Origin: Candidatus Omnitrophota bacterium
Lineage (GTDB): Bacteria > Omnitrophota > Gorgyraeia > Zapsychrales > Zapsychraceae
Direction of reading: 5' to 3'
DNA: 64,000 nt
NCBI GenBank assembly: GCA_029261055.1
Contig: JAJDCA010000037.1
Location: 10,291 to 74,290, forward strand
The translations under genes were made by a program, and so were the position numbers. Below, in pieces: positions 1 through 46,004 of this stretch. The notes beneath the pieces are model-generated. The model did not search any database. It was not told the origin of the DNA and saw only the letters and a list, made by a program, of their open reading frames with translations. Position 1 is the stretch's first letter; each line of letters starts with the position of its first letter.

Positions 1-8
1 TTAGGCCA

Positions 9-275
9 GTGCTTTATAGTAATTGTTATCACGGCATTCAAGTTGCTTCTACAGGAGAAAGGAATAGCCGGATGGGCGATTTAGGTGTGGTGAGGCCATT
101 TGTATTTATCGTGCTTATGCTGCTTTTGTGGGCTATTGTTGAATCTGCAATGGAATATAGGTATGCAGTATGTAAAAACAACACTTTAATTGTTATAAAT
201 GGTTGTGAATATTATACAAAGAATGGCGGTCGCACCTTTACGCATTGTTATGATTGCGGTAATCACAATAACTAG
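9..275 (+). CDS. hypothetical small protein with one TM segment (may start upstream of window)
   Basis: ORF track; hydrophobic stretch VVRPFVFIVLMLLLWAIV; no recognisable domain. Confidence 0.3.
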   Translation: MLYSNCYHGIQVASTGERNSRMGDLGVVRPFVFIVLMLLLWAIVESAMEYRYAVCKNNTLIVINGCEYYTKNGGRTFTHCYDCGNHNN

Positions 276-436
276 TTTCATGAGTCGGACTACCGTTCTT
301 TGGAAAGGATTAAGATGAACGACAACGATGATGTGTGGCAAACTAAGAAGTTTAATATTTATTGGGGCTGGTTTTGTATGTTTGTACTTTGTGTTTATTT
401 ATATACAAAGATATAATGTGTAAATTATTAAAAAGA

Positions 437-465
437 TTGATCATTAAAATATTATGTGGTATAAT
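437..465 (+). promoter_or_regulatory. sigma70-like promoter TTGATC-N17-TATAAT with TGn extended -10
   Basis: TTGATC at 437-442, 17-nt spacer, TATAAT at 460-465, TGG immediately upstream of -10; 28 nt upstream of RBS GAAAGGAGAAT. Confidence 0.6.
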
Positions 466-493
466 AATAAAAATGTTTTCTTGAAAGGAGAAT

Positions 494-709
494 ATGATGG
501 CTAAAAAAAAGAAACGTAAGCCAAGAAGTCGTGCAGTTACTACCATTTTAAAAGAGATTGAAAAAGCTAAAAATGCGATTGAAAAAGCTAAGGTTGCTGA
601 GTCAGAACTCAAGGCTTTGCAGGATGAGTTGGCTGCAATACCGCAAGAAAGACTAGATAGAGAAATTGCCAAAGCTAAGAATGCAATGGATATGTTGTCT
701 GGTAAATAA
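494..709 (+). CDS. small basic coiled-coil protein (hypothetical)
   Basis: Strong RBS GAAAGGAGAAT; Lys/Arg-rich N-terminus then heptad-like EKAK repeats. Confidence 0.55.
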   Translation: MMAKKKKRKPRSRAVTTILKEIEKAKNAIEKAKVAESELKALQDELAAIPQERLDREIAKAKNAMDMLSGK

Positions 710-739
710 TTAATATTAATAATGGAAAGAATAATTTAA

Positions 740-1351
740 ATGAAAGTTAATGGATACGAAATATGTTCAGGTGCTAATTTACGTGGCATTGATTTAAGTG
801 GTGTTGATTTGCGTGATGCTAACTTGTGTTATGCTGATTTAGCCTTTGCAAATTTATCTGATGCTAAACTATGTAATGTTAATTTGAGTAATGCTGATTT
901 GAGCAATGCTAATCTGATTAATACTGATCTATCCGGTACTAGTCTTAATTGTAGCAATTTATTCAATTCCAATCTGTGTAGCGCTAATTTAAGTGGAGCT
1001 AATTTATCTTTAGCTACTTTAAACTATGCTAAATTAGATGGTACTAACCTGAGCGATGCCAAATTACCTACAGTTACAATGATGCTAATGGCTAGATGGA
1101 ATAAGGTTTCAGACAAACTATGTTTAAAGTTAATGCAATATGATGCTGATTGTCACGGAAATATTGAGGCATTTGATAATTGGGCGAAAAACTCTAATGA
1201 ATGTCCAATGATAAATCAACCATTTATCAGAGCGTGTAACTTTATAGAAAAATCTGATCTATGGTGTCGTAGGACAGAAAACGAGGTAGCGCCAACACCA
1301 TACGAATTACTAATGCAATTATTTAAAGAAAAAAATATCAAATTTGCATGA
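740..1351 (+). CDS. pentapeptide-repeat protein
   Basis: Long run of A(N/D)L(S/x)x pentapeptides (ANLSDAKLCNVNLSNADLSNANLINTDLSGTSL...). Confidence 0.85.
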   Translation: MKVNGYEICSGANLRGIDLSGVDLRDANLCYADLAFANLSDAKLCNVNLSNADLSNANLINTDLSGTSLNCSNLFNSNLCSANLSGANLSLATLNYAKLDGTNLSDAKLPTVTMMLMARWNKVSDKLCLKLMQYDADCHGNIEAFDNWAKNSNECPMINQPFIRACNFIEKSDLWCRRTENEVAPTPYELLMQLFKEKNIKFA

Positions 1352-1401
1352 GTTGGATATGTGAATTTTGGAAATAAGTTATAGCAACATGTAAGGCAAG
1401 T

Positions 1402-1569
1402 ATGAATATTATACGAAACAGTCCGAGAATTTTACTATATATTATGGTATCAGCAATTATGCTTGCAATTATGATAATGTTTTATGTTGTAGATCCGGCA
1501 GAGACTAATATAAAAATTCAAAATGACAGAACAAATGATTTAATAAAAAAAATCCGTCAATTTAAATAA
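1402..1569 (+). CDS. hypothetical 55-aa membrane protein
   Basis: Unlisted short ORF MNIIRNSPRILLYIMVSAIMLAIMIMFYVV...; one TM; weak RBS AAGG. Confidence 0.3.
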   Translation: MNIIRNSPRILLYIMVSAIMLAIMIMFYVVDPAETNIKIQNDRTNDLIKKIRQFK

Positions 1570-1623
1570 TAATATCATTAATTACTATTCTGTATTAATC
1601 AATGGTTGAAGGGCAAAACTCTA

Positions 1624-3756
1624 ATGAAACTAGATGCAAAGTCTGTCGGTGTAGAATCTCGTGGCGTAAAAAATACAATGAAATTCGGAATTGGCGATGC
1701 ATCCGTTGTAATTGATATTCTAAGAAATAGACTATATGCTCATCCTATTCAAGCTTTAGTGCAAGAATATTTGTCAAATGCTAGAGATGCTCATAGAGAA
1801 ATCAATTCAAGTCGATCAATAGTTATTACTATACCAACTGAGTTATCGCCAGTTTTTAAAGTTAGGGATTTTGGTCCTGGCGTTTCTCCAGATCGTTATG
1901 AAAATGTGTTCATTCTGTATGGATCAAGCACTAAAAGAGATAACAATATTCAGACTGGTGGATTTGGTATTGGTGCAAAATCTGCATGGTCTTATACTGA
2001 TTCATTTAATGTAACCACCTTTGTAGATGGTACTAAACGTGACTACATAAATCATGTTGGAAACACAAATGAGGGTGAGGCTGATTTAATAAGCGAATCT
2101 GAAACCGATGAGTTGAATGGGACAGAGATACAGATATCTGTTGATTATAATGATATCTATAAGTTTAGAGATGCTATTTTCAGAGCTACATACTTTTGGC
2201 AAGATCAATGTCAATTTTTTGGTATAGATAAAGACAGCTTGCCAGAAAAAATAGGTGTAATTGTTGGAGAAGATGTTGAAATAGTACCCAAAAATCATAT
2301 CAATAAATTATTGGGAATTAATTCTTATAGTAAGTATTTGATTGTTAGTTTAGATGGTATACCATATGCAGTAAAGGATGCCAGCGAAACAATTAATAAT
2401 GTAATGAATATGCTTGATCCTGAATACACTGCTGTTGTTCATTTGGGTGTTGGAGATATTGGTGTTGCTGCTAGCAGAGATTCCATTAATTATGATGATG
2501 AAACAAATGACACGTTAGAATTGGCAATGCATCATACTCTTAGTGTTTTTAATCGTTATATAGATAATAAAGTAAGTTCTATTGGTTCAATATCAGGATT
2601 TTTTGATGCATACAAAACACTAGAGCCTATGTTTGCCGATAATTACCTATGTAAATCTAGTTTACAGTTTAATAATTATAAAATAATATCATGGAATATT
2701 CATAGTGTTGATTTTAATTATATCAACATTGAAGAGGTGCAGTTTCTATATAATAGAAGATCAAGATCCAGAAATATGTATAGATTAACAAGAAATGACA
2801 GGAAAAGTGTTAATTTTAAGGATTTAAATCACTGTATTTATTATATTGACACAGATGAATCAAAACAAAAGATAAATAGAAGAATTCGCACCGCATTAAA
2901 TATAATCAATGATGACTTATCAAATAAAAAGGAATATATTACTGTTTTAGGTTCAAAATTAAATAATAAATCTAAACTAATGCAGATTGTAAAAGATTTA
3001 AAAGCTATTCCTATATCTTCAATAGAAATGGCTCCGGTTCAAAAAAGAACAAATACTAAAAAATTGTCTTGTGAAAGTGTGATAGTTCATTGTGTGTCAA
3101 AAAACAATTACCATACTGCTAAAAAATCTCACTCAAAATATACAAAATATGTTAATCTTTACGAAAATGAAGTTACATATATATATGTGGAGCTTCACAA
3201 AGGTAAATTTCCAGAATCTATACATGAGGGTGAATTATCAGACTGGTTTGAGAAACATTATGATGATCAAAAGTTGGTCTTTTGTGGAGTAGCTAATAGA
3301 ACTGCTAAGAGTGTTAAAAATGATTCAAATTTTATATCTCTGGAAAAATGGGCATCTAAGTTTAAACCTTCTAAAGATATGATCAATGATACAGTTTATG
3401 TTGATTCAATACGCAGAGAGTCTCAAATTGGAGACCTAATAAAAATATTAAAAGATTTGAAATTGAGAAATGCTAAGTTAGTAAAAACGGTGTATAATAT
3501 GAATGAAATTATAAATAGCTTTAATCAAAATCAATTGCCAACAAAAATAAAGGAATTAATAAATTATGACCATGAAAAACATTCAAAAAAAATAAATTCA
3601 ATGATAGATGCTTTGCGGGATGTAAAGCAACAGTATCCAATATTACAATTTTTACTAGATAATACCCATTACAAAATGGGCAATAGGTTTAAGGAAATGC
3701 CGTTTGAAGATTTGTCACTATATATTAACTATAAAAAAAGATTTTTAAAAAAATAG
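1624..3756 (+). CDS. GHKL-superfamily ATPase, Hsp90/MORC-like (HATPase_c)
   Basis: Bergerat-fold motifs in order: N-box EYLSNARDAH, G1 VRDFGPGV, G2 GGFGIGAKSAWSY. ATG at 1624 preferred over the TTG at 1606 used by the ORF track. Confidence 0.65.
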   Translation: MKLDAKSVGVESRGVKNTMKFGIGDASVVIDILRNRLYAHPIQALVQEYLSNARDAHREINSSRSIVITIPTELSPVFKVRDFGPGVSPDRYENVFILYGSSTKRDNNIQTGGFGIGAKSAWSYTDSFNVTTFVDGTKRDYINHVGNTNEGEADLISESETDELNGTEIQISVDYNDIYKFRDAIFRATYFWQDQCQFFGIDKDSLPEKIGVIVGEDVEIVPKNHINKLLGINSYSKYLIVSLDGIPYAVKDASETINNVMNMLDPEYTAVVHLGVGDIGVAASRDSINYDDETNDTLELAMHHTLSVFNRYIDNKVSSIGSISGFFDAYKTLEPMFADNYLCKSSLQFNNYKIISWNIHSVDFNYINIEEVQFLYNRRSRSRNMYRLTRNDRKSVNFKDLNHCIYYIDTDESKQKINRRIRTALNIINDDLSNKKEYITVLGSKLNNKSKLMQIVKDLKAIPISSIEMAPVQKRTNTKKLSCESVIVHCVSKNNYHTAKKSHSKYTKYVNLYENEVTYIYVELHKGKFPESIHEGELSDWFEKHYDDQKLVFCGVANRTAKSVKNDSNFISLEKWASKFKPSKDMINDTVYVDSIRRESQIGDLIKILKDLKLRNAKLVKTVYNMNEIINSFNQNQLPTKIKELINYDHEKHSKKINSMIDALRDVKQQYPILQFLLDNTHYKMGNRFKEMPFEDLSLYINYKKRFLKK

Positions 3757-3766
3757 AAAATGGCAC

Positions 3767-3795
3767 TTGCATTAGTTTAAATAATATGTTATAAT
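3767..3795 (+). promoter_or_regulatory. sigma70-like promoter TTGCAT-N17-TATAAT (extended -10)
   Basis: TTGCAT 3767-3772, 17-nt spacer ending TGT, TATAAT 3790-3795; upstream of RBS AAGGAGAAAC. Confidence 0.6.
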
Positions 3796-3823
3796 ACAAT
3801 AGATATTAGTATAAGGAGAAACA

Positions 3824-4018
3824 ATGGATAATAAAGCTAGGACTGAATTCTTGAAATGTACAATAACTGAAGTTTTGGGTGAGTTAGATGACCTAAACGA
3901 TAAACCTTGCGAAGATCCTACGTTATATGGACTAGAGGAAAAGTTTTTGTTACGTAAAATGGAAATGCTAGAGGCTCATTTAAATAAAATAGAATATCTA
4001 ATTGAAAAAGAAAACTAA
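3824..4018 (+). CDS. small conserved protein, paralog of ORF 61092..61286
   Basis: RBS AAGGAGAAAC; shares pattern EFL..LDD..P..E.F..RM.ML.AHL..EYL with the 61092 ORF. Confidence 0.5.
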   Translation: MDNKARTEFLKCTITEVLGELDDLNDKPCEDPTLYGLEEKFLLRKMEMLEAHLNKIEYLIEKEN

Positions 4019-4074
4019 TGGCCTGTAAATCAAAATCAACATTATAAACAAATCTAAAAGAAAGTGAGAAATCA

Positions 4075-5031
4075 ATGTTAAGCTATCATATTTTACCCAA
4101 TGGAATTAGTCTTAGTTATGATGGAAAAGTTGTTCTGGTCAATAAAAGCGACAAGAGACACGAGAAAATCATAGCCGCGATCAGAAATGGCGAAGAGTCT
4201 ACTATTCCTGGCATCGTTGAGCACATGCAGCGTTATTTTGACAGACATGACGGAGCTGAATTCGTTAATGGTCAAGTTTTAATCGATGGATGCGAAATTC
4301 CACAAGAGCTGAATCATTATATTCTTGGTTTGGCGGATGATGAGCTTCCATTTAATCGCATGATAAAGTTCTGGAGACGGTTACAGAAGAGTAATCGTTT
4401 CGGTGTTAGAGAAAGACTATTTCGGTTTCTTCAGCGACAAGAACATCCTATTACAGAAGATGGTAGGTTTTTGGCTTATCGTCGTGTTGGTGTTATTGAT
4501 AATAAAAAAACGAAAAAGGATGGTGTTGATGTTTTAAAATTCCCAAACAAGACTGAGGGTGAGCGCATTCTGGTTGACTTGCATACTAGGACTATCGACA
4601 ACTCAGTTGGTGAAACTCCCTATATGGACCCTGTGACAGTATGTGACGATCCAAACATTACATGCGCAGAAGGACTACATGCTGCATCATTTAAGTATGC
4701 TAGTGAATTCTACGGTGATGGTGTTTTGGTTGAGGTTGCTATTGCTCCAGAAGATGTAATTTGTGTGCCAAATGATTATGATGGGCAAAAAATGCGCACA
4801 TGCCGCTATGAAGTCATTACAGAAATAGATGGTCCAAGGTCTGGTCCCTCTGTTGATTTGGAACCTAATAATAAGACCAATGATAGTTCGGATGAAAACG
4901 TCATAATGACAGATGAAGAAATTGAGGAAGAGCGACAAAAGGAAAGATGTTGGGATTCCGAACATAACAATATTGATTACGATGATGACAATGGCAATTA
5001 CGATGACGACGATGTTGAGTATAGCTATTAA
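4075..5031 (+). CDS. hypothetical protein with poly-acidic C-terminus
   Basis: 318-aa ORF, RBS GAAAGTGAGAAATCA; C-terminal DYDDDNGNYDDDDVEYSY tail; no motif recognised. Confidence 0.55.
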   Translation: MLSYHILPNGISLSYDGKVVLVNKSDKRHEKIIAAIRNGEESTIPGIVEHMQRYFDRHDGAEFVNGQVLIDGCEIPQELNHYILGLADDELPFNRMIKFWRRLQKSNRFGVRERLFRFLQRQEHPITEDGRFLAYRRVGVIDNKKTKKDGVDVLKFPNKTEGERILVDLHTRTIDNSVGETPYMDPVTVCDDPNITCAEGLHAASFKYASEFYGDGVLVEVAIAPEDVICVPNDYDGQKMRTCRYEVITEIDGPRSGPSVDLEPNNKTNDSSDENVIMTDEEIEEERQKERCWDSEHNNIDYDDDNGNYDDDDVEYSY

Positions 5032-5062
5032 ATAATTAATTTTAAACATCACCTATAATAGT

Positions 5063-5434
5063 TTGAAAGGCATATTTATGGATTTTAACATCGGCGACAC
5101 TGTATTATTAACGTTGGACAAAAAGGCTGGAAAAGTAATTAGAAGTTTTGAATCTTTAGATGATATTGCGCTCCACTATCCACGTTATAATAGTCAGGAA
5201 GAATACTATATATTAACTAGAAAAGTATGGTATCAAGATAATAATGTTGATGAATATGACCCTATATATCTTGTCGAGCTTACTAATCCTGAATCATGCT
5301 CAGAATCAATCAAGTATATGCTTTGTCCTGGTCCACTATTATCTTTGATTAAAAATAATTGCTGTTGTGGCGTTGATACACTTGGGTATGGTATTCATTC
5401 ACAATATTGTGATAAATACAAAATTAGTTTATAG
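5063..5434 (+). CDS. hypothetical protein
   Basis: ORF with RBS GAAAGG; ends in TAG and lies in frame with the downstream pentapeptide gene. Confidence 0.5.
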   Translation: MKGIFMDFNIGDTVLLTLDKKAGKVIRSFESLDDIALHYPRYNSQEEYYILTRKVWYQDNNVDEYDPIYLVELTNPESCSESIKYMLCPGPLLSLIKNNCCCGVDTLGYGIHSQYCDKYKISL

Positions 5435-5443
5435 GTAAAGAGA

Positions 5444-6064
5444 GTGTTTAAAGTGTCAAATTGTCCTAAATGTGGTAGTCAGATAGTATATCAAGGTTTG
5501 TCCAAGGTAGAGTGCGATACATCAAGTTGTTCTAATTTCAGCTCTATCGAGTCTTTAGATGTAGATTTCAATGACGACTACTTAATGACAAAGATTAAAG
5601 ATGTGTTGAGATACACTAATTGTATTAGTTGGTTCAAGTATTTTGAAAATAATCGGCAGATAATTGCTAATGCACTAGATTCCAATAATTTAGTGGGTTA
5701 TTTTAATATTTTGCGTGATACTGAACTAGAGTATTGTAGTGGACCACTGGTGGGTAGATTATTTACTAGTTTTGGCAATTTACGTGGCGCTAATTTGAAT
5801 CGTTTTAGCTTATGTAGTGCTAATTTAGATGGCTTAGATTTGTGTGGTACTAATTTAATTCGCGCTAGTCTAGCTTGTGTCAATTTGACTGGTGCTGATC
5901 TAACCAATGCATCTTTACAAAGGGCTGACCTGTTTGGTGCTAATCTATCCTATGCTAATTTGGCTGGTGCCAACTTAACTAATGCTGATTTGCGTGGCGC
6001 TGATCTAGGATTCTGTAATTTAACTAACACTGTCTTAACTGGAACTATTTTGGAAAAACCATAA
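5444..6064 (+). CDS. zinc-ribbon plus pentapeptide-repeat protein
   Basis: N-terminal CPKCG...C..SSC; C-terminal ANL/ADL pentapeptide run; GTG start uncertain (GTG 5444 or 5453). Confidence 0.75.
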   Translation: MFKVSNCPKCGSQIVYQGLSKVECDTSSCSNFSSIESLDVDFNDDYLMTKIKDVLRYTNCISWFKYFENNRQIIANALDSNNLVGYFNILRDTELEYCSGPLVGRLFTSFGNLRGANLNRFSLCSANLDGLDLCGTNLIRASLACVNLTGADLTNASLQRADLFGANLSYANLAGANLTNADLRGADLGFCNLTNTVLTGTILEKP

Positions 6065-6072
6065 AATAATAC

Positions 6073-6101
6073 TTGCACCAATTTATTTAATGTGTTATAA
6101 T
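6073..6101 (+). promoter_or_regulatory. sigma70-like promoter TTGCAC-N17-TATAAT (extended -10)
   Basis: TTGCAC 6073-6078, 17-nt spacer ending TGT, TATAAT 6096-6101. Confidence 0.6.
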
Positions 6102-6144
6102 TTATTGTAGGTAATTTTGCTTACATAATTAGAAAGAGGCTGTT

Positions 6145-6492
6145 ATGAGCTTACTTAAAAATGATTTTGATTCACTTATGAATAAGGCTAAGAATGAAAA
6201 TCTAGTAACCAATATCGCAAAACAGGTGTTTCTGACTTTATTTTTTGGTGTACTAGGAATGATTCTTGTACCATATTCTTTGAATCTACTTTTATCTTGT
6301 GCTAGTATGGAGCCTGTTGCTACTAAAACTGCTGGATTCCTTATTGGTGCTGCTATATTTAACCTAGATAAATTTGGAAAATTTAAGTTTGTTTCAATCT
6401 TGTCTATGTTGCTGTATGTTGCTTTCGATGTAAATATGTTTGACGCAGTTAAAGTTGGCGTTGATTTTCTATTAGCTGCTGCACCAGAGTAA
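6145..6492 (+). CDS. hypothetical membrane protein
   Basis: RBS AGAAAGAGG; 2-3 predicted TM helices. Confidence 0.5.
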   Translation: MSLLKNDFDSLMNKAKNENLVTNIAKQVFLTLFFGVLGMILVPYSLNLLLSCASMEPVATKTAGFLIGAAIFNLDKFGKFKFVSILSMLLYVAFDVNMFDAVKVGVDFLLAAAPE

Positions 6493-6515
6493 AATTAAAG
6501 TTGAGAGAATAAATT

Positions 6516-6980
6516 ATGGAAATTATCGAGGGTGATTTGCTCCATTTGGCATGTACTGGTGAATTTGATGTTATTATTCATGGTACTAATTGTCAAAATG
6601 TTATGGGTGCTGGGATTGCTTATGAAATTAAGGAGTATTTTCCAGAAGCTTTTGTGGCTGACCGTGATTATTTAAGATGTCATGGTTCAGAATTTCTGCT
6701 AGGGAATTTTTCCTCAGTCGATGTTTCTGATCTGTTTGGAAGACCTTTAATTATAGTTAATGCCTACACTCAACTAAAATATGGAGAAGGATTGCAAGTT
6801 GATTACGATGCAATTGACCAAGTGTTTGGTAGAATTGCTGATGCTTTTCCAAATAAATCAATAGGTTATCCAAAAATTGGTGCTGGGTTAGGCGGTGGTG
6901 ATTGGGATAGGATCTCAAAAATAATTGATACGCGCTTAGATGGCATGGATCATACTTTGGTAATCTATAAAGAAAGTTAG
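6516..6980 (+). CDS. macro-domain protein, TARG1/OARD1/DarG-like
   Basis: VIIHGTNCQNVMGAGIAYEIKEYFP matches the TARG1-type signature (H-x-x-N-C-x-x-MGAGIA). Confidence 0.7.
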   Translation: MEIIEGDLLHLACTGEFDVIIHGTNCQNVMGAGIAYEIKEYFPEAFVADRDYLRCHGSEFLLGNFSSVDVSDLFGRPLIIVNAYTQLKYGEGLQVDYDAIDQVFGRIADAFPNKSIGYPKIGAGLGGGDWDRISKIIDTRLDGMDHTLVIYKES

Positions 6981-6986
6981 CAATTT

Positions 6987-7553
6987 ATGCTATTTACAAC
7001 AATTCAGTTATGCAAAAATAATAAACCATGTACTGATGGATATAAAAGAATGCTGGAACGATTTCCAGATCACACCAAAGATGAAATTATACCCATACTA
7101 AGAATAGCTGAAGATAACAATTTTGGACTAGAAGATGGCTTGTTTGCCTTAAAGTGCACTATGGAAGATAGTAGAAGTACCTGTATTGATTTCTGTATCT
7201 TTTGCTTAGAAATAGCTATTAATTCTTTACATACAAATAACAAAAACTACAATAGAATAATAAAGCTTGAGCGCAACATAAGAGACTATGCTTACGGTGA
7301 CATCACTACATTTCCAGAATGCGACATGCCATTATCTATTGTAGATTCTTGGGATATTGATGAGCGTATTTTAAATGTTGTGTATCATACATATTCATGT
7401 ATAGAAAGCGCAAGTAATAAAGATGCCGCTGGCCATGCCGCCGATGTGTCACACATAACAATTGATCATTGCATCAATGATAAAAATGATAAAGATATAA
7501 GGAAAAGTCAGGTGCATAAGCACTTGATTCATTTACTAGAATTTAATAAATGA
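6987..7553 (+). CDS. hypothetical Cys/His-containing protein
   Basis: 188-aa ORF, no recognised domain. Confidence 0.45.
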   Translation: MLFTTIQLCKNNKPCTDGYKRMLERFPDHTKDEIIPILRIAEDNNFGLEDGLFALKCTMEDSRSTCIDFCIFCLEIAINSLHTNNKNYNRIIKLERNIRDYAYGDITTFPECDMPLSIVDSWDIDERILNVVYHTYSCIESASNKDAAGHAADVSHITIDHCINDKNDKDIRKSQVHKHLIHLLEFNK

Positions 7554-7744
7554 TTAAATATATAGAAGGGTATGCTGTGTTTATTTCCATATTATTGATA
7601 GTGTGGAGTCTTATAAGTGTATCTATATTAGGTTTAAGTTCCCCTAAACCAACTGTTCTTGGGCTGTTTGGTGCATTAGCAGTATTAGTTTTCATATTTG
7701 TAGCCATCGTATCGAGGGATAAAAATAAAAAGGAAACATATTAG
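7550..7744 (+). CDS. small membrane protein
   Basis: Two hydrophobic helices, overlaps neighbours by 4 nt (operon-like). Confidence 0.4.
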   Translation: MIKYIEGYAVFISILLIVWSLISVSILGLSSPKPTVLGLFGALAVLVFIFVAIVSRDKNKKETY

Positions 7745-8193
7745 TGATAACATTATTAACAATTCTTTGGCTTTTATGTTTGTTTTGTTTTGCTATGTGG
7801 GGCATGTATAGGCTCGTAGTTAGAGGAGATCAATATGGCGACAAGGATGAATTTCATCTGTTTATGTATCTCTGTGGATTATGTCTCTTTCTATTTGCTG
7901 CTGGGTTTGCTGGCTGTGAAGCAACCAACAAATTTAATAAAGGGCAATCTTTTATAAATGAATTTGGAACGATTGGTATTGTAACTGATATCAAAACAAT
8001 TAGAACTAGTGCCCATCCAAGCCATCCACATTATATTACATTATATGTAGTAAAAAATAGAGAAAATAAATTAATGAGCGTTAATAGTGGCAAACATAGT
8101 GCTAAAGTTGGAGAACTATGGGAGTTAAAATGTGATTATAGTGGCCCATATTCTGTAGGACTATATAAAAAATTAAATAAAAAATCATTGTAA
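7744..8193 (+). CDS. membrane protein (hypothetical)
   Basis: N-terminal two TM helices; GTG start. Confidence 0.45.
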   Translation: MITLLTILWLLCLFCFAMWGMYRLVVRGDQYGDKDEFHLFMYLCGLCLFLFAAGFAGCEATNKFNKGQSFINEFGTIGIVTDIKTIRTSAHPSHPHYITLYVVKNRENKLMSVNSGKHSAKVGELWELKCDYSGPYSVGLYKKLNKKSL

Positions 8194-11080: not shown

Positions 11081-11641
11081 ATGTTGATATTTAAAATTAG
11101 ACAGCGTGGTGCTGCAATTGTTGAGACTGATTTGGTTGAAATTGTATTTTCTCAAGAGACACCACTAGCGTTTAGGCGTAAAGATCATGATAATCGTGCA
11201 TTTCTAGTAAACAGAAGACTTATGCAGTTTGATAAAAGAGTTGTGGATTCTTGGCTAAATGGCCAAGACTACTCTATTGTTAGCGAAAACAGTGTGGCCG
11301 AATCTATAAAAACAAAAACTGGAGATGCAATACCAAATACAGCGCCAATCATTCGTTTTTTTACTCCAAATACACAGGTTGTAGCCAATGGAGGGTTTCC
11401 GTTTACTTTATCAACTAATGGTACAGCATCATTGATTGACGATAATCTTCCAAGCGGAAACATAACATTTTTATGGAAGCAAATAAGTGGCCCTGGTGTT
11501 TCGTCTGTGACATTTTCTGACCCTACGGTCGGATTTCCATCTATTACTTTTCCAACAAGTGGGATATATGTCATAAGACTCACAGCGGATGATGGTGAAT
11601 TATCTGGATACGCCGAAATAACTGTTGATATTAATAAATAA
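11081..11641 (+). CDS. Ig-like/PKD-type domain protein (possible virion decoration)
   Basis: C-terminal FLWKQISGPGVSSVTFSDP...GIYVIRLTADDGELSGYAEITVDI resembles bacterial Ig/PKD repeats. Confidence 0.5.
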   Translation: MLIFKIRQRGAAIVETDLVEIVFSQETPLAFRRKDHDNRAFLVNRRLMQFDKRVVDSWLNGQDYSIVSENSVAESIKTKTGDAIPNTAPIIRFFTPNTQVVANGGFPFTLSTNGTASLIDDNLPSGNITFLWKQISGPGVSSVTFSDPTVGFPSITFPTSGIYVIRLTADDGELSGYAEITVDINK

Positions 11642-11669
11642 ATAAACGTCAAATATAGCAATATTTATG

Positions 11670-11703
11670 CCTGATAATTTTTGTAAATTGTCAGGTTTTT
11701 TTA
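11670..11703 (+). terminator. rho-independent terminator
   Basis: CCTGATAAT...ATTGTCAGG 9-bp stem (one mismatch) followed by T7 run. Confidence 0.6.
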
Positions 11704-11732
11704 TTGACAATACAAACATTTCATCTTATAAT
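11704..11732 (+). promoter_or_regulatory. consensus sigma70 promoter TTGACA-N17-TATAAT
   Basis: Exact consensus hexamers with 17-nt spacer; 38 nt upstream of the 11771 start. Confidence 0.7.
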
Positions 11733-11770
11733 TTATTGAACGTATTTTAGTTGTATTTTGAACCCATGAG

Positions 11771-12097
11771 ATGAAAGTAACTATTATGAGCAATCAAATA
11801 GATATTATAAAAAATTTAATTGAAAATACTAACGGCAAGATTGCCAGCATTACATTTAAAAAACGTACTGGGAAACAAGAGGTGACTACCAGAACAATTA
11901 GAACTGGTGTAAAACGAGATGTTATTGGTGTTGGACAAAAATATAATCCGTCAGATTACGATCTCATAACGATATTTGATATGAATAGAGATAATGGTCC
12001 TGGCAAAGAGCGTGGTAGACATTTGAACATCCCTCTTGACTCTATCATAGAATTGCGTTGCGGTAAAATTAAATATACAACAGATAAGGTTATTTAA
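11771..12097 (+). CDS. hypothetical protein
   Basis: ORF track. Confidence 0.5.
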   Translation: MKVTIMSNQIDIIKNLIENTNGKIASITFKKRTGKQEVTTRTIRTGVKRDVIGVGQKYNPSDYDLITIFDMNRDNGPGKERGRHLNIPLDSIIELRCGKIKYTTDKVI

Positions 12098-12423
12098 TGA
12101 AAATATCAATTTTGCTAATTATTTTATTATCTATATGTGGCTGTAATAAAACTAGTAGTATTAATAACAGTCACATTGTAGAAAATACTACTGAGTTTGA
12201 ATATTGGGATGGTAAATTCCCAAATACTATACCAAAAGAATCATTTAGAGTGTATTTTAAAACTCTGAAAAACAAAAATCACTCAATTAGGACTGGAATT
12301 ATGGTTGAGCCAGCAACTAGATTACATGACGTTGCAATCAATACCTGTAAGGATCATGCTAGAAATCAGGGCTGGGTTGAATACAGTAGTCAACAATGGA
12401 GACGAGAGGTTTCTGTTAAATAA
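12097..12423 (+). CDS. putative lipoprotein
   Basis: N-terminal LLIILLSICGC lipobox-like signal. Confidence 0.5.
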   Translation: MKISILLIILLSICGCNKTSSINNSHIVENTTEFEYWDGKFPNTIPKESFRVYFKTLKNKNHSIRTGIMVEPATRLHDVAINTCKDHARNQGWVEYSSQQWRREVSVK

Positions 12424-12424
12424 A

Positions 12425-12661
12425 ATGACAAAACAAATTTCCGTCTATATGTGCATCAAGTGTGCTAAGGTTTTTTCTGAGCCCGACAGATATAAAACTA
12501 ATTCAGAGTATTTTGAGTGGTGTCCATGCTGCTGTAGTCCCGATATTAAATCTATTACCTGTACTGAAAACCTTAATTTAAAGCAATCAAAATGTTGTGA
12601 TTTATTTGATAGTATTGGAAACTTTATTATTATAGATTCACTATTTAATGAAAGTATATAA
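12425..12661 (+). CDS. zinc-ribbon protein
   Basis: CIKCAKV...CPCCCSPD; ATG at 12425 directly after the upstream stop (track start 12305 overlaps the previous gene). Confidence 0.4.
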   Translation: MTKQISVYMCIKCAKVFSEPDRYKTNSEYFEWCPCCCSPDIKSITCTENLNLKQSKCCDLFDSIGNFIIIDSLFNESI

Positions 12662-12664
12662 CTT

Positions 12665-13156
12665 ATGGATTATGATGATTTAGAAAAAATCTACACCAAA
12701 CAATTTACTGACAAGTGCGAAGAATTAAATTTAAGAAAACCAAAAAAGGACTTTGAGGGAATTCCAACACTTTATCCTCGTGGAAAAAAAAGAAAGTGGT
12801 ACTGTCAGGCTTGGGGAAATAATGAGGCAGCACTAACCCTCTTTGATCATATTTTAGCAGCAGATGGTAAAACACTGCATGGTAAAACGGTAGTTGTTTT
12901 TTTTAATAAATTCATCAAGTGTACGGGGTTTTATGGCGTTGAGTTTCGCGATTTAGAAGATCATAATGTCATGTCTCGCTTCATAGAGAATGGATTTAAA
13001 ATTATAACAGGCGATACAGAGATGAACCTTGTTTTTCCACTGTCTAAATTAGAGGAAATAGTAGAAGAATTTGGTTTTGAAAAAAAGAAAGCTAGTAAAA
13101 ATCAAATAGAGTACAGAAAAAACTTTGGCAAATTCGTCAAAGAGTCAAAAAAATAA
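12665..13156 (+). CDS. hypothetical protein
   Basis: ORF track. Confidence 0.5.
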   Translation: MDYDDLEKIYTKQFTDKCEELNLRKPKKDFEGIPTLYPRGKKRKWYCQAWGNNEAALTLFDHILAADGKTLHGKTVVVFFNKFIKCTGFYGVEFRDLEDHNVMSRFIENGFKIITGDTEMNLVFPLSKLEEIVEEFGFEKKKASKNQIEYRKNFGKFVKESKK

Positions 13157-13965: not shown

Positions 13966-14538
13966 TTGTTAAAGAATACGCTATGTTGTGGTAAGGAATT
14001 GAAATTGAAATTAGATGGTAATAATGCTATTATATCCTATTTGTCATTTTTATTAATAGGTATTTTTACATTTGTTAGTGTTTCGGTTGGTAAACCAGGC
14101 ATTGAATATTTGTCGTTTGCAATTGACTTAAAGGATGTTGTAGTGATTGCGGTGGCGTTACCAACAATGATATTAATTAATTATGTTGTTGGTTTACTTT
14201 CTCCCAATGAAGGTGATAGTGGTAGAATTAATGGTAAATTGTTGCCTATGATTGTATTCGTTATATTTGCCTCCATTATAGAAGAAATGTTTATTAGGAG
14301 CGTCATTCATGTTAGGTTTGGGGTTTTTATTGCAGCTATTGTTTTTGCATTAATGCATTTAAAATCATTTTCATACTTTATAATGACATTTATTATAGGA
14401 TTACTGCTCGGTGTTTGTTTTGAGTTTACAGGTAGTGTGTCTGTTCCGGTAATAATTCATGTTTTACATAACATAATCGTTGTTGTTTCGTTGAACTTTA
14501 GAAAGAATAATTATGTCGTGTGTGAAAATTGTTCCTGA
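13966..14538 (+). CDS. CPBP (CAAX/Abi) family intramembrane metalloprotease
   Basis: Motif 1 IEEMFIRS (EExxxR), motif 2 FALMH (FxxxH), motif 3 HVLHN (HxxxN); multiple TM helices. Confidence 0.7.
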   Translation: MLKNTLCCGKELKLKLDGNNAIISYLSFLLIGIFTFVSVSVGKPGIEYLSFAIDLKDVVVIAVALPTMILINYVVGLLSPNEGDSGRINGKLLPMIVFVIFASIIEEMFIRSVIHVRFGVFIAAIVFALMHLKSFSYFIMTFIIGLLLGVCFEFTGSVSVPVIIHVLHNIIVVVSLNFRKNNYVVCENCS

Positions 14539-27764: not shown

Positions 27765-27838
27765 TCGCTCTTAGTGTAGTGGCAGCACCAGAAATTCTAA
27801 ACTTCTTAGTCAGGGTTCGATTCCCTGGGGGCGATCCA
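27765..27838 (+). tRNA. suppressor-type tRNA, anticodon CUA (amber), CCA encoded
   Basis: Acceptor TCGCTCT/GGGGCGA, D stem GTGT/GCAC, anticodon arm AGAAA-TTCTAAA-CTTCT (U33, A37), T arm CAGGG-TTCGATT-CCCTG, TCCA. Confidence 0.6.
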
Positions 27839-29174: not shown

Positions 29175-29379
29175 AAAATTAAAGAGCTTTGAGCTGACTG
29201 CCAGTGGATCTACACACACTCAGGTTAATTTGGTTTTTAACGCTAAAAACAAAGAAGAAGCTGAAAAATTAGTAGATGAAATTCTATCTAATGGACATTT
29301 CAACGGTAAAAAACTAGAATATAGTTTTGATTACACAAATTTCGAAGACATAGATGTAGTGGAGGTTGAAAATGAATGA
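29164..29379 (+). CDS. hypothetical small protein
   Basis: ORF track. Confidence 0.4.
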   Translation: MSDKKLKSFELTASGSTHTQVNLVFNAKNKEEAEKLVDEILSNGHFNGKKLEYSFDYTNFEDIDVVEVENE

Positions 29380-29992
29380 ATGGCGCAAATATCCAAAAAC
29401 TACTAGGTTATCAAAATGTAGAATGAGAATAACTGAAAAGCTCGACGGAACAAACGCTGCAATTGAAATTATAGAAAAGCTTGATGGACCCAATATTGTT
29501 TTATCATATTCTCGCAATAGGCAACTTGGTGAGCCTAAACCCTATACTACAGTACTTGAAGATGGTTCTGAAAAAACATACATGTCTAAAGAGTATGAGC
29601 ATTTTGGATTTAGAGAATGGGTAAAAGAAAACGCTAAAAGATTATCGGAGCTATTGCCGGTTGGTATTCATTATGGAGAATGGTGTGGTCCTGGAATACA
29701 AAAAAATCCTTTAGGGTTGCCTAGCAAGAGGTTTTTTCTATTTAATGGATACCCCAAGGACACGGAAGTAGAAAAGGCACAGGGTATAGGGCTATTTGAA
29801 GTACCAACGTTATATATTGGTAAATTTTCTATAGAAAAAATAGAAGAGGTTCACAATGACCTACTATCAAATGGCACCAAGGTGTTTAATTCAATTGAAC
29901 CAAAGTCACCAGAGGGAATAATCATTAACGCATTTGGTACAAGATTCAAGAAAACAGAATTAGATTTACCAAAGGGTCTTATTGATGAATAG
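29372..29992 (+). CDS. ATP-dependent RNA/DNA ligase-family nucleotidyltransferase (RNA-ligase-like)
   Basis: Motif I EKLDGTN (KxDG), motif III-like HYGEWCG, motif IV PEGIIINAFG, motif V RFKKT. Confidence 0.5.
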   Translation: MNEWRKYPKTTRLSKCRMRITEKLDGTNAAIEIIEKLDGPNIVLSYSRNRQLGEPKPYTTVLEDGSEKTYMSKEYEHFGFREWVKENAKRLSELLPVGIHYGEWCGPGIQKNPLGLPSKRFFLFNGYPKDTEVEKAQGIGLFEVPTLYIGKFSIEKIEEVHNDLLSNGTKVFNSIEPKSPEGIIINAFGTRFKKTELDLPKGLIDE

Positions 29993-35112: not shown

Positions 35113-35186
35113 AGGCTATGTAAGTAGCTTCCTTCTAACTAATCAATCTTAGACGTTGAATCAAACTAGCTACCGCAATCTCCTTT
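35113..35186 (+). ncRNA. CUUCCUUCUAA-motif structured element, copy D
   Basis: AGGCTATGTAA-GTAGC-TTCCTTCTAA...GCTAC-CGCAATCTCCTTT. Confidence 0.3.
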
Positions 35187-35203
35187 TTAAGAAAGTTAAT
35201 ATA

Positions 35204-37306
35204 ATGAAGCAAAAAATTGCACTCAAGTACTCCAGCTCCATATTTATCAGCAACAATGACTCTAGTGATCACAATAACGCTATCTTGGTTGCTTCAATTA
35301 ATTCTGAATTGATGCAAAATGGGTTTATGCTAAGTCAAGATTCTAGCACTAAATTAGGTATGCTTAGTGATGTTGAACTTACTGACATATATAAAGACAT
35401 TGTTACTGAAGTCCGTATCCTCGTTGGTAACGATGTAGACTATCAACCAATGTACCCAAACTTTCCCGAACAGGTAATGAATGCTTCTGCATCAGAGCTT
35501 TTTCTTAATGCTATCACCCACTACTGGACACATGGCGAATGGAGTCCTAGCTATGAAAAATTACCTCGTGAAATAAGTTTTGAGAATGTTAATTTTAAAG
35601 AGATAAACTTAATTCATGATGTGGAATTTAATAAAATTTTCGAAACAATACTATCTTCGAATGATTCTATTTCTGACTTTGACAGAGAGACCATTGCGTG
35701 GTTTGTTGACACTCATAAGCAATGCAATTATGAAAACTTAAAAATTCCATTTAAAGAAAATATGTGCTTTCTTGCTGGATTACTTGCTGCAAACAATGAA
35801 GACATATCAAAACTACCACAAACGGCAACAGATGTTCTTAGGATTGCCACTGTGTTTTCTGGTGGAGATATATCATTAGCAGAAAATACTAAATTTAAAT
35901 CATTGCCACGAAAATTGCGTCGAATGTTAGTTTCTGCTTTAGAAAACGTGGCAAATTTAGATGATCTTATGCGACATAGAGGTAAATGGATTCGTCTGTT
36001 TCATAATCTACATATAAGTGAATTGACCAAATCGGCAAACTTGCTTGATATGGTGGAATTGATTAGAAGTGGCAAAAATATTGAAACATTTAATAGTAAG
36101 GTTGAGTTAACTATAGCGAACAAAGATCCGTTAGCCGCTATAGCTCTTTTAAAGACTCGCCCAGGGGATTTTGCTCGTCGCATCAGTTGTGTTTTGGGAC
36201 TAAAAGTTCCTGGACGTAGAACAGTTGTAGAAGAGTTTTTAAAAGTTGCTAATCAGGTATCAACGCGAGTTTTGCTTCAATTGATGGGCAGTTTAAAAAT
36301 TCGTGGAAATTCTACAACCGATAAAAGGGTAATATTTCCCAAGGGTAGTATTCAGAAGGCACAAATTGTCAATACAGAATTACCTAAGCTTGGCATAAGA
36401 GCAACGTTGGCTTTAACCAATGGTGTGAAGGAAGTACTGACTGAGAGATTTTCTAGCCTGGATAATCTTGGATGTGTCTACATTGATCCAGATCTTAAAA
36501 AATGTCCACTGCCATCTCAGCAGCGCAGTGCTTCAGAAGGTTTAATACAGGTTGCAAGAGGTACACATCTGCCAATCGGAGATGATAAAAATACATTAAG
36601 ATTTTTTGTATACTGGATAGGGCAAGATATAGATTTAAGTGCTACATTTCATGATGAAAATTTTAGAACTATTGGAAATGTTTCATATAGGAATCTACAA
36701 AATAAACTATTTGGATCATATCATAGTGGAGACAAGACCAAAGCTCCAAATGGCGAATGTGAATTTATTGACGTAAATATTGACGATGCCGTTAAATCTG
36801 GTACAAGATATGTGGTTATGAATGTGTTAGTGTATAGTGGTCCAAAATTCTCTGAGCACGAAAAATGTTATGTTGGATGGATGACTCGTTCTCAACCCAA
36901 TAGTAATGAGATATTTGACGCTAAGACAGTAGATCAAAAGATTGACCTAGCTTCAGAATGCCTAAACTCTATTCCAGTCGTGTTTGATTTAGTAGAAAGA
37001 AAGGCAATATGGACAGACTTATCAACCTCCAAAAATGTTCAGTGGGGTGGCAATAATGTAGAATCCAATAGGGCTACCATCGAGGACAAGTTGGAAGCTA
37101 TTACTAGCTTAAACAATAAGACTAATTTGTTTGAGCTATTTGAACTACATGCAATGGCTAGATCTACTGCTATTGTAGATGATCCCGAAAATGCAGAGAT
37201 GATATTTTCTGTAGAAAATTGTGGTGACATTACGCCAAGTAACATCATGTTAATAAATTCTGAATATTTGACCGATAGTACAGCAACAAAGAAAGAAAAT
37301 GTATAA
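35204..37306 (+). CDS. large hypothetical protein (700 aa)
   Basis: ORF track. ATG 35204 preferred because TTG 35156 lies inside element D. No recognised motif. Confidence 0.5.
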   Translation: MKQKIALKYSSSIFISNNDSSDHNNAILVASINSELMQNGFMLSQDSSTKLGMLSDVELTDIYKDIVTEVRILVGNDVDYQPMYPNFPEQVMNASASELFLNAITHYWTHGEWSPSYEKLPREISFENVNFKEINLIHDVEFNKIFETILSSNDSISDFDRETIAWFVDTHKQCNYENLKIPFKENMCFLAGLLAANNEDISKLPQTATDVLRIATVFSGGDISLAENTKFKSLPRKLRRMLVSALENVANLDDLMRHRGKWIRLFHNLHISELTKSANLLDMVELIRSGKNIETFNSKVELTIANKDPLAAIALLKTRPGDFARRISCVLGLKVPGRRTVVEEFLKVANQVSTRVLLQLMGSLKIRGNSTTDKRVIFPKGSIQKAQIVNTELPKLGIRATLALTNGVKEVLTERFSSLDNLGCVYIDPDLKKCPLPSQQRSASEGLIQVARGTHLPIGDDKNTLRFFVYWIGQDIDLSATFHDENFRTIGNVSYRNLQNKLFGSYHSGDKTKAPNGECEFIDVNIDDAVKSGTRYVVMNVLVYSGPKFSEHEKCYVGWMTRSQPNSNEIFDAKTVDQKIDLASECLNSIPVVFDLVERKAIWTDLSTSKNVQWGGNNVESNRATIEDKLEAITSLNNKTNLFELFELHAMARSTAIVDDPENAEMIFSVENCGDITPSNIMLINSEYLTDSTATKKENV

Positions 37307-37308
37307 TT

Positions 37309-38052
37309 ATGCATAGCCCTGAACAAGATAATCAAGAAGAAAATATAATAGAGGTATTACAAGATGTGGCTGATTCCGTAATAGCTGCACCTAACAAAAA
37401 TGCATCTGAAGCACAGATTGCTATTACAGGTAATGAAACTGAAAATGAATCTCTAATCTTATCTCCGAATCTAATGTTAGATATGGTTGATATAGAAACA
37501 GACCTGGATAGACTAACTGTCAATTGTACAGATGTAAAAGATGACGAAATTGATGAAATTAAACGACAACTACATGCAAATATGGTTCTTTTGGACAAAT
37601 CCGCATTAGGATTATCTGCAATACAGATTGGCATTCCAAAAAGAGCTTTTGTGATTAAGGTGATCAACAAAGATAGACCAATGCGCCGCAAACTATCATT
37701 TGATGAAAAATATAATTTAATATATTTTATTAATCCAGAGATTATATTTTCGCAATACCCTCGTCATATGGTTGAATCATGTCTTAGTATCCCTCGTGAA
37801 AAATTTCGTGTTGAAAGATGCTCTCGGGTTAGGATTACAGATGATCTAAATGGTGAACAAATGTTTAAAAATAAACTAGCGCATGTTGTACAGCATGAAT
37901 TTGATCATACTCGTGGAATTACACTGTACCAGTCTGGTAATCAAGAAATCGTACAAGTAGATGACAATGCTAGGGTAGATATTGGTTTCCTTAGCGAACG
38001 TGAAAGACAATCTTTATTTGAGACAACTGGGAGGTTGGATTATGGGACTTAA
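37309..38052 (+). CDS. def: peptide deformylase with ~75-aa acidic N-terminal extension
   Basis: Motif I GLSAIQIG, motif II ESCLSIP (EGCLS), motif III QHEFDHTRG (HExxH). Confidence 0.8.
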   Translation: MHSPEQDNQEENIIEVLQDVADSVIAAPNKNASEAQIAITGNETENESLILSPNLMLDMVDIETDLDRLTVNCTDVKDDEIDEIKRQLHANMVLLDKSALGLSAIQIGIPKRAFVIKVINKDRPMRRKLSFDEKYNLIYFINPEIIFSQYPRHMVESCLSIPREKFRVERCSRVRITDDLNGEQMFKNKLAHVVQHEFDHTRGITLYQSGNQEIVQVDDNARVDIGFLSERERQSLFETTGRLDYGT

Positions 38053-38326: not shown

Positions 38327-38397
38327 GGCTCTGTAGTTTAATGGTAAAACAGCCGATTCTAACTCGGTATTTGCAGGTTCAAATCCTGTCGGAGTCT
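38327..38397 (+). tRNA. second suppressor-type tRNA, anticodon CUA
   Basis: Acceptor GGCTCTG/CGGAGTC, D arm GTTT-AATGGTA-AAAC, anticodon arm GCCGA-TTCTAAC-TCGGT, T arm GCAGG-TTCAAAT-CCTGT. Confidence 0.6.
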
Positions 38398-40734: not shown

Positions 40735-40735
40735 G

Positions 40736-41125: not shown

Positions 41126-41140
41126 AATAAGGATTTTAAG

Positions 41141-45731: not shown

Positions 45732-46004
45732 ATGGGTTGGTTAATGTTGGTAAAATTGCTATTACCACTGATAGCTAAAAAAAAGACTCTTTCATTTTCT
45801 GAAGCTAAGGTATTGGAGCAGTTAATTTCTAATGTAGCTGATCTTTTTGCCAAATCAAAAAGAACATGTGTGTATAAAACGCACGAGTGTAAATATAGAG
45901 ATGGCGCATGTTTTGTTTTAGCAACAAAGGGTAAGGACTGGAAAATTGATGATATTAAAAAGTGCCCATATTTAAAACCAATAAAGGAGAATGATAAAAA
46001 GTGA
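45732..46004 (+). CDS. hypothetical small protein
   Basis: RBS TAGGAGCAAGAT. Confidence 0.45.
   Translation: MGWLMLVKLLLPLIAKKKTLSFSEAKVLEQLISNVADLFAKSKRTCVYKTHECKYRDGACFVLATKGKDWKIDDIKKCPYLKPIKENDKK

Follow-up and report, generated by a model that had tools for sequence, protein, structure and literature searches.

A putative glutamine-type anti-DarT macrodomain in a plastic accessory region around the rII genes of a divergent phage

What does a stand-alone macrodomain do in a phage genome? The question is raised by a 64,000-nt stretch of DNA (the window), which belongs to a novel phage of ~155 kb and in which we mapped the region 494-7553, where every gene lies on the + strand. A 154-aa protein encoded there, hereafter the macro protein, had been singled out in a preliminary description of the sequence as a macro domain of the TARG1/OARD1/DarG type. 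Together with two pentapeptide-repeat proteins (PRPs; PRP1 and PRP2) it was taken for a candidate anti-defence island, in which a phage enzyme could reverse ADP-ribosylation by DarT. Our analysis suggests that the macro protein reverses the marks that host DarT2 leaves on phage DNA, and that it does so within a plastic accessory region; we put the probability of this reading at roughly 0.65. The PRPs, on the other hand, would be exchangeable cargo of that region, with no functional tie to the macro gene supported.

Class, family and active site of the macro protein

The macro protein carries the motif HGTNCQNVMGAGIA at residues 22-35, as had been noticed before, and scores 26.7 bits against the Pfam Macro model (cut-off 22). 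It matches phrog_335 at 1.1e-48 and the PADLOC DarG model at 7.9e-16, the latter over model positions 3-144 of 329, which is the macro part only. Like the PRP and rII family matches given below, these lie well outside what chance would produce. Sequence matches in the PDB are led by Mycobacterium tuberculosis (Mtb) DarG (4e-10), SCO6735 (4e-9) and Thermus aquaticus (Taq) DarG (1.3e-6), followed by BT1257 and Poa1p, and the top matches are all ALC1-like, not MacroD or PARG. The match to TARG1 itself is marginal for the single sequence (phmmer E 0.48, 20% identity). A profile built from 40 homologues recovers TARG1 at 4e-7, behind BT1257 (1.2e-13), Mtb DarG (3e-11), SCO6735 (9e-11) and Taq DarG (2.6e-9).

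The AlphaFold2 (AF2) model of the macro protein has a predicted local distance difference test score (pLDDT) of 93.2. Its Foldseek matches are Poa1p, DarG, TARG1, BT1257 and SCO6735, all at probability 1.0 and with template-modelling (TM) scores of 0.68-0.77, so that the structural comparison with TARG1 and DarG proposed in the preliminary description returned an alpha/beta/alpha macro fold at TM ~0.7-0.77. Because the PDB, profile and PADLOC matches agree with the AF2 fold, we class the macro protein as a genuine ALC1/TARG1/DarG-class macrodomain, which upholds the type first assigned to it.

By tblastn, 2,765 phage records contain homologues of the macro protein, among them the T-even tk.4 genes. 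It is 30% identical to T4 Tk.4 over 153 aa (BLASTP E 5e-17) and 23% identical to PhiKZ gp104 (E 2e-8), and we place it in the T4 Tk.4/AdfM family (phrog_335), of which it is a new and divergent representative. Like the macro protein, T4 Tk.4/AdfM is a stand-alone phage macrodomain of ~150 aa that has the Gln of a 'YTQ' motif and a G-A-G-(L/I)-G-x-G-x-W loop, and it too sits among early accessory genes. The two differ in that identity is low, that tk.4 adjoins vs/tk whereas the macro gene lies near rII, and that the phage lineages are distinct, the window phage having a DnaE-type polymerase. Elsewhere, homologues of the macro gene have Mom, PAPS-reductase and Prok-Ub/E2/JAB genes (locus L011), or a methyltransferase and a uracil-DNA glycosylase gene (L009), as neighbours.

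The active site separates the family into types. In the alignments (A1 and A5), the column of Q86 holds Gln in the macro protein, in its homologues of 54-59% identity, in Tk.4 of T4 and JS10, in SCO6735 and in BT1257, and Lys in TARG1 (K84), Taq DarG (K80) and PhiKZ AdfM (K78). The partner residue of TARG1, D125, aligns with Gly in the macro protein ('GCGLDRLQW' vs 'GAGLGGGDW'). For these alignments the DarG, SCO6735 and BT1257 fragments were taken from the PDB search output. Invariant across the 40 homologues are N25, N82, Q86 and the loop G122-A-G-L..G128-D-W130. In A5 the SCO6735 counterparts of Q86 and N25 are Q85 and N27; this multiple alignment fixed the register after a pairwise HMMER alignment with SCO6735 had shifted the Gln by three residues. 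K88 falls near the position of SCO6735 K89, in a loop that is shorter in the macro protein. With Q86 and Gly at the dyad positions, the macro protein would not employ the Lys (or Lys/Asp) chemistry of DarG and TARG1.

SCO6735 of Streptomyces coelicolor (5e3b) and BT1257 of Bacteroides (2fg1) have Gln in place of the catalytic Lys, retain the Asn and possess a GxGLxGGxW loop, as the macro protein does. They are, however, cellular and not phage proteins, their mobile loop after the Gln is longer, and V25 and K34 of SCO6735 are replaced by Gly and Ala in the macro protein. PhiKZ gp104 and the DarG2 macrodomains (Taq 5m31/5m3e, Mtb 5m3i) have the fold class, the conserved Asn and presumably the substrate in common with it, but still have Lys at the catalytic position (K78/K80), together with a G-x-G-N-G-G-L loop, at 23-26% identity. 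DarG also differs in its additional C-terminal DarT-binding domain and its adjoining darT gene, whereas the macro protein is macro-only and its gene neighbours tm115 and orf188. Human TARG1/OARD1 resembles the macro protein in its ALC1-like fold and in the 'MGAGIA' motif of the phosphate-binding loop, but the macro protein has neither residue of the K84/D125 dyad. On the aligned residues, then, the macro protein is classified as a Gln-type enzyme like Tk.4 and SCO6735, and PhiKZ AdfM as a Lys-type, DarG-like one.

Anti-DarT activity and competing substrates

What such a site can do may be judged from its homologues. In T4, a transposon screen with a DarTG2 host gave tk.4 as its single significant match, and a clean tk.4 knockout renders the phage DarTG2-sensitive; the gene was named adfM, for anti-DarT factor Macrodomain, in 2025 (bioRxiv 10.1101/2025.11.20.689424). 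PhiKZ gp104, independently named AdfM in 2026, removes from DNA the ADP-ribose that DarT2 has added and counteracts the toxicity of DarT2, with N23 and K78 as active-site residues (PMC13309987). The mechanistic precedent is SCO6735, which is without the catalytic Lys and Asp. It cannot do without Gln85, which Asn27 positions (the Q85A mutant is inactive); it is efficient at removing ADP-ribose linked to thymidine in DNA, and its expression rescues DarT-poisoned cells (PMC9411070). The proposal that a phage copy could reverse DarT has thus been borne out for the homologues T4 Tk.4/AdfM and PhiKZ gp104/AdfM, and we regard the core anti-DarT idea as correct but as already known biology.

These results also bear on how the missing dyad is to be read. 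The preliminary description had looked to absence of the Lys/Asp equivalents of TARG1 as a reason to abandon the proposal. Both residues are indeed absent from the macro protein, but its function is not refuted by this, because T4 Tk.4 and SCO6735 are active with the same Gln. Given the invariant SCO6735-like Gln site of the family, absence of the dyad should not be used to dismiss genes of this kind. The terms 'lysine' and 'SCO6735' do not appear in the text of the T4 AdfM preprint (bioRxiv 10.1101/2025.11.20.689424).

In the mechanism that we favor, the macro protein would be an orphan antitoxin-like ADP-ribosylglycohydrolase, whose most likely job is to strip the ADP-ribose that host DarT2 puts on thymidine of single-stranded phage DNA, and replication would be restored in hosts carrying DarTG2. 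Catalysis would most likely be Lys-independent and SCO6735-like: Q86, held by N25, would position the distal ribose while water does the chemistry. We infer the substrate, DarT2 as the target and any role of the PRPs, next to a fold, a family membership, a residue conservation and a synteny that are read directly from the comparisons given here.

Several points weigh against this assignment. The DNA-contact residue K34 of SCO6735 corresponds to A32 in the macro protein and to Ser in T4 Tk.4. The enzymatic activity of T4 AdfM is only inferred (bioRxiv 10.1101/2025.11.20.689424). SCO6735 also hydrolyses protein ADP-ribosylation (PMC9411070), and so the macro protein could have a wider substrate range or another substrate altogether. 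Among free-living bacteria, homologues at 54-59% identity are frequent, hence the family is not phage-specific. Finally, the label of an island for the surrounding region draws on just two relatives of the window.

Best placed among the alternatives, although we consider it unlikely, is that the macro protein acts on another ADP-ribose substrate, such as modified protein of the host or phage or modified RNA, which might bear marks of other ART-type defences, or ADP-ribose-1''-phosphate or O-acetyl-ADP-ribose; the small-molecule version amounts to the old 'phosphatase' or Appr-1-p annotation, a Poa1p-like housekeeping role. Poa1p is the top Foldseek match (5e-9), many homologue records bear the annotation 'phosphatase' or O-acetyl-ADP-ribose deacetylase, homologues occur widely in bacteria away from any phage, and the window phage encodes an RNA ligase (29366-29992). 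The activity of SCO6735 on protein points in the same direction (PMC9411070). Sequence similarity to Poa1p is limited, however, to the N-terminal ~45 residues, and SCO6735 did not act on ADP-ribose attached to RNA through 5'-phospho or 2'-OH linkages in the results of a study whose discussion is less clear-cut (PMC11833690). The sole known genetic phenotype in the family is the DarTG2 sensitivity of T4 without Tk.4, from a screen in which this gene was the single significant match.

The anti-DarT2 reading would place an AdfM-type macrodomain in a deep-branching, uncultured phage lineage. Separate from it is a broader and tentative proposal, which we hold possible at best: that anti-DarT2 macrodomains have been recruited by phages at least twice, from subclades that differ in mechanism. 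One such recruitment would be Gln-type and SCO6735-like (T4 Tk.4 and the window phage), the other Lys-type and DarG-like (PhiKZ).

The rII backbone and its variable slots

The genes around the macro gene are listed in Table 1. The preliminary description had placed both PRP genes and the macro gene, all on the + strand, at the positions confirmed there, but had described the PRPs as flanking the macro gene. They flank the rII pair instead, and PRP1 lies 5.2 kb upstream of the macro gene. Nor are the intervening genes simply small early genes, as they include rIIA and rIIB, the two largest of the region.

Table 1 Genes and promoter-like elements of the mapped region, with positions in the window.
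Feature	Position	Strand	Description
Sigma-70-like promoter candidate (best)	437..465	+	TTGATC-17-TATAAT with TG extended -10, upstream of orf71; consensus match
orf71	494..709	+	71 aa, small, basic (isoelectric point, pI, 10), helical; first gene of the conserved backbone
PRP1	740..1351	+	203 aa; pentapeptide repeats and C-terminal module; slot A cargo
tm55	1402..1569	+	55-aa predicted membrane peptide (hydrophobic core in translation); slot A
rIIA homologue	1606..3756	+	716 aa; GHKL-type ATPase-like N-terminus
Extended -10 element TGTTATAAT	3787..3795	+	rIIA-orf64 gap
orf64	3824..4018	+	64 aa, acidic, between rIIA and rIIB; specific to the window
rIIB homologue	4075..5031	+	318 aa; C-terminal tail very acidic
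orf123	5063..5434	+	Cys-rich protein without assigned function; slot B cargo
PRP2	5444..6064	+	206 aa; orphan N-terminal domain and pentapeptide repeats; slot B cargo
Extended -10 element TGTTATAAT	6093..6101	+	PRP2-tm115 gap
tm115	6145..6492	+	115-aa predicted membrane protein
Macro protein	6516..6980	+	154 aa; stand-alone macrodomain, Tk.4/AdfM family, Gln-type (SCO6735-like) active site
orf188	6987..7553	+	Cys-rich, acidic, without assigned function; first gene of slot C

Two relatives of the region, a 168-kb contig (L006) and a 28.9-kb contig (L010), were found through their macro homologues, which are 57% and 56% identical to the macro protein, and the comparison covers these two. They share orf71, rIIA, rIIB, the macro gene and downstream genes with the window at 40-66% identity; homologues of orf71 (49% in L006, 54% in L010) occupy the matching position upstream of rIIA, and L006 has ~12 further syntenic genes besides rIIA, rIIB and macro. 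The backbone reads orf71, slot A, rIIA, rIIB, slot B, macro, slot C, and then homologues of the window genes at 11081-13156.

The contents of the slots differ from one genome to the next. Slot A holds PRP1 and tm55 in the window, a DUF7239 gene and a 268-aa gene in L006, and a 57-aa gene and a 273-aa homologue of the L006 268-aa gene in L010; tm55 has no homologue in either relative. Slot B is made up of orf123, PRP2 and tm115 in the window, of a 249-aa gene, a tm115 homologue (L006:7054-7332, 47% identical), a DUF1523 gene and an 82-aa gene in L006, and of a 79-aa gene only in L010, where tm115 is absent. In this slot orf123 has no homologue in L006 or L010 and no significant family match in Pfam or PHROG, and tm115 has no match in either family collection. 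Slot C comprises orf188 and ~8 further genes in the window, one gene in L006 and ten in L010. One of the ten, a 109-aa gene at L010:9139-9468, carries an Acb2_Tad1_hairpin domain (PF24729) ~700 bp downstream of the macro gene and has no homologue in the window; Acb2/Tad1 is an anti-CBASS/anti-Thoeris sponge family. The matches of orf188 are weak (phrog_18326 at 5e-5, PADLOC PDC-M06A at 3e-4), and a PADLOC scan of the genes of the region gave nothing beyond this match and the macro gene.

Since slot contents vary between the window and its two relatives, the PRPs are best described as lineage-specific cargo, and rII and macro as backbone. Conserved flanks, variable cargo and counter-defence genes (rII, the AdfM-like gene and, in L010, the Acb2/Tad1-hairpin gene) are all present. 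This gene order supports a plastic accessory region with counter-defence genes but not a functional PRP-macro unit; in the relatives, PRPs are conserved neither beside rII nor beside macro. The region would be the start of the early/accessory arm of the phage, with orf71, rIIA, rIIB and macro as a backbone that is interspersed with three slots of changing content. The resulting map of three variable slots around rII gives access to unassigned accessory genes, such as the PRP family with the C-terminal module of PRP1, that can be screened for counter-defence.

The rII homologues themselves are very divergent. rIIA matches phrog_612 at 4.6e-76 from residue 7 onwards, and its true start is probably the ATG at 1624, which is preceded by GAAGGG; its Pfam HATPase_c match is weak (7.9e-5). 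rIIB matches phrog_609 at 2e-42. The identities to L006 and L010 are 49% and 48% for rIIA and 64% and 66% for rIIB, and the rIIB proteins of both relatives carry PF26926 (Phage_T4_rIIB). The PHROG matches are full-length, and the genes are adjacent in the order A then B, as in T4. The pair departs from that of T4 in its divergence and in the 64-aa gene inserted between the two, whereas the gap between rIIA and rIIB in L006 and L010 is ~56-60 nt. Neither gene has BLAST-level relatives among cultured phages. Searches of IMG/VR for related loci with rIIA and with the rIIB alignment returned nothing, and metagenomes gave one weak match (L008). We take the two as the classical counter-exclusion pair.

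The intervening genes had also been described as lying behind strong sigma70-like promoters. This could not be upheld: sigma-70-like sites are not enriched (33 observed vs 49.5 +/- 6.5 expected from shuffles), and a good -35/-10 pair occurs at just one site, 437-465. The gaps between genes also contain TGnTATAAT elements, at 457, 3787 and 6093, a motif that is likewise not enriched window-wide (10 observed vs 8.6 expected). With one good promoter site and such elements in the gaps, up to three transcription units are plausible in the region. The element at 6093 could drive tm115, macro and orf188 as a putative unit.

Pentapeptide-repeat cargo and other genes of the window

Both PRPs are real, with Pfam Pentapeptide (PF00805) matches at 5.7e-26 for PRP1 and 1.8e-21 for PRP2. 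Each has ~20 clean A(D/N)LXX repeats forming ~5 coils (~100 aa), and each is fused to an unrelated domain. A recent duplication was considered as their origin and rejected, as their 43% identity does not extend beyond the repeats, and unrelated PRPs are at least as similar.

In PRP1 the repeats span aa ~9-113; residues 2-110 of the AF2 model (pLDDT 90.8) form a beta-helix, behind which comes a small domain of helices. This C-terminal module of ~85-90 aa has W120, M132, D135, W148, C155-P156, R164, F168 and E197 as conserved residues (alignments A3 and A6), with W120, M132, F145, P156, R164 and F168 invariant, and the consensus W..vSd.LC..LM.YDA..H...F..WA.gG.CPY...RA.NF.E...LW. It occurs in 254 of 1.84 billion cluster representatives and is C-terminal in all of them, and 34 of the 40 family members scanned carry Pfam pentapeptide repeats. 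One of the 40 (A6) has a Lar_restr_allev domain and one an ETF domain. The loci of PRP1-family members (L004, L012, L013) are phage-like runs of small unassigned genes and lie beside neither rII nor macro. In L004 (10951-11352) and L012 (6727-7128) a 133-aa gene directly follows the PRP gene, with a DUF1257 match in L012; the two genes may form a conserved pair, for which the window has no equivalent of the 133-aa gene.

PRP2 has the reverse arrangement, with an orphan N-terminal domain of ~105 aa containing CPKC...C..C, a possible Zn ribbon, and repeats at aa ~106-205. A Pfam scan of the N-terminal domain with E up to 10 gave just faint Zn-ribbon matches (E 0.09-0.4), and no database homologue covers this domain. 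Neither the C-terminal domain of PRP1 nor the N-terminal domain of PRP2 has a tblastn match in phages, and the PRP1 model found only generic beta-helices in Foldseek, with nothing informative on the C-terminal module.

The preliminary description had read the two PRPs as Qnr/MfpA-like DNA mimics that may act against restriction or topoisomerase poisons, in an anti-defence island with the macro protein. We consider this improbable. Both are bona fide pentapeptide-repeat beta-helices, right-handed and quadrilateral like Qnr, MfpA and AlbG; both are mildly acidic overall (pI 4.8-5.0) and sit in variable slots beside known counter-defence genes, and the Lar restriction-alleviation domain in one member of the C-terminal-module family could be taken to point the same way. 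The architecture, however, is different: Qnr and MfpA consist of ~8-10 coils, ~180-220 aa that are all repeats, with a C-terminal dimerisation helix, whereas PRP1 and PRP2 have half the coils and a fused non-repeat domain and are not full-length dimeric rods. The repeat domains carry a small net charge, -4.3 in PRP1 and -1.3 in PRP2. Qnr, MfpA and AlbG are matched at E values of 6e-4 to 6e-3 by PRP1 and ~1e-5 by PRP2, far below the cyanobacterial and designed PRPs (1e-27 to 1e-31), and they also rank below other PRPs in the Foldseek fold comparison. In addition, PRPs are absent at the same positions in L006 and L010, the EVADES catalogue of 268 anti-defence proteins does not use the word 'pentapeptide' in its text, and we found nothing specific in the literature on phage PRPs as counter-defence proteins. 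The identification as two pentapeptide-repeat proteins therefore stands, and Qnr/MfpA-like DNA mimicry is unsupported by their half length, their weak charge and the lack of preferential similarity.

Still less probable is that the PRPs partner or regulate rIIA and rIIB, for instance with PRP1 docking on the GHKL-type ATPase domain of rIIA as MfpA does on that of GyrB. The gene directly before rIIA is indeed in the PRP1 slot, PRP2 comes after rIIB, rIIA has its weak HATPase_c match, and a complex of MfpA with the N-terminal 47-kDa fragment of gyrase has been solved (6zt5). Such a partnership is nevertheless disfavoured because both relatives carry related rIIA and rIIB (48-66% identity) without a PRP, and the PRP1-family members in L004, L012 and L013 do not adjoin rII.

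Most plausibly, the PRPs would be protein-binding beta-helix scaffolds directed against some host or rival-phage factor. It is conceivable, and we advance it with low confidence, that the PRP1 family represents a new counter-defence or host-takeover class, defined by a beta-helix of variable length with a conserved C-terminal module in phage-like contexts. PRP2 may belong to it too, and both PRPs may be cargo that is swapped at hot-spots on either side of rII. The novelty that remains beyond the known anti-DarT biology is modest and consists of this family and of the split between Gln-type and Lys-type phage AdfMs.

The rest of the window was also inspected. A megablast search of window positions 1-8000 against 50,697 phage records found no nucleotide-level relative. 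The window encodes UvsX, a DnaB-like helicase, a primase, a single-stranded DNA-binding protein, a dNMP kinase, a dCMP deaminase, an RNA ligase and a peptide deformylase, and its replicative polymerase (56590-60009) is a 1,139-aa DnaE-like Pol III alpha. The best relatives of the latter, in human faecal phage contigs and actinophages, are only ~26-33% identical, which points to a deep-branching phage lineage without a close cultured relative. T4, the bearer of Tk.4, also has the ADP-ribosyltransferases (ARTs) Alt, ModA and ModB, a combination which might suggest that the macro protein reverses or tunes marks set by ARTs of the phage itself (Alt/ModA/ModB-like), but neither an ART nor a NADAR partner was found in the ~50 window ORFs scanned (~90 kb of the genome lie outside the window), which makes such regulation unlikely within the window, and the T4 screen links Tk.4 to DarTG2, so that we give this last alternative hardly any credence.

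The lineage is further marked by amber-reading tRNAs. Two tRNAs with a CUA anticodon (27765-27838 and 38327-38397, + strand) accompany two Met tRNAs and Gly, Asn and Pro tRNAs, with a tRNA cluster at 25753-27838. TAG ends 29 of the 98 window ORFs, among them rIIA and the macro gene, and late genes outside the window may be recoded at TAG, as in some gut phages. The macro ORF and orf188 share a reading frame, TAG and 6 nt apart (6978-6989; ...YKES*QFMLFT...), and amber suppression would, on this arrangement, fuse the macro protein to orf188. In L006 the frames do not keep this relation, so that it may be due to chance.

Other genes of the window are recorded here as side observations. A second 716-aa ORF, of the same length as rIIA, lies at 35156-37306; it matches only phrog_33734 (3.5e-79, function unassigned) and has no Pfam match. 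Host-like enzymes that are unusual in a phage early region include an Rce1-like CAAX protease (13966-14538), the peptide deformylase (37309-38052), an S26 signal peptidase (39281-39772), a trypsin-like peptidase (46001-46843) and a DHH phosphoesterase (53637-54539). Glycosyl- and methyltransferases are found at 18707-24913. A further group at 39760-43920, with a GT2 glycosyltransferase, a YAcAr/YspA-type SLOG protein (40736-41125), a cytidylyltransferase-like protein, a PfkB kinase and a nucleotide-sugar epimerase, forms a sugar-nucleotide cluster that resembles an HldE/HldD-like ADP-heptose pathway.

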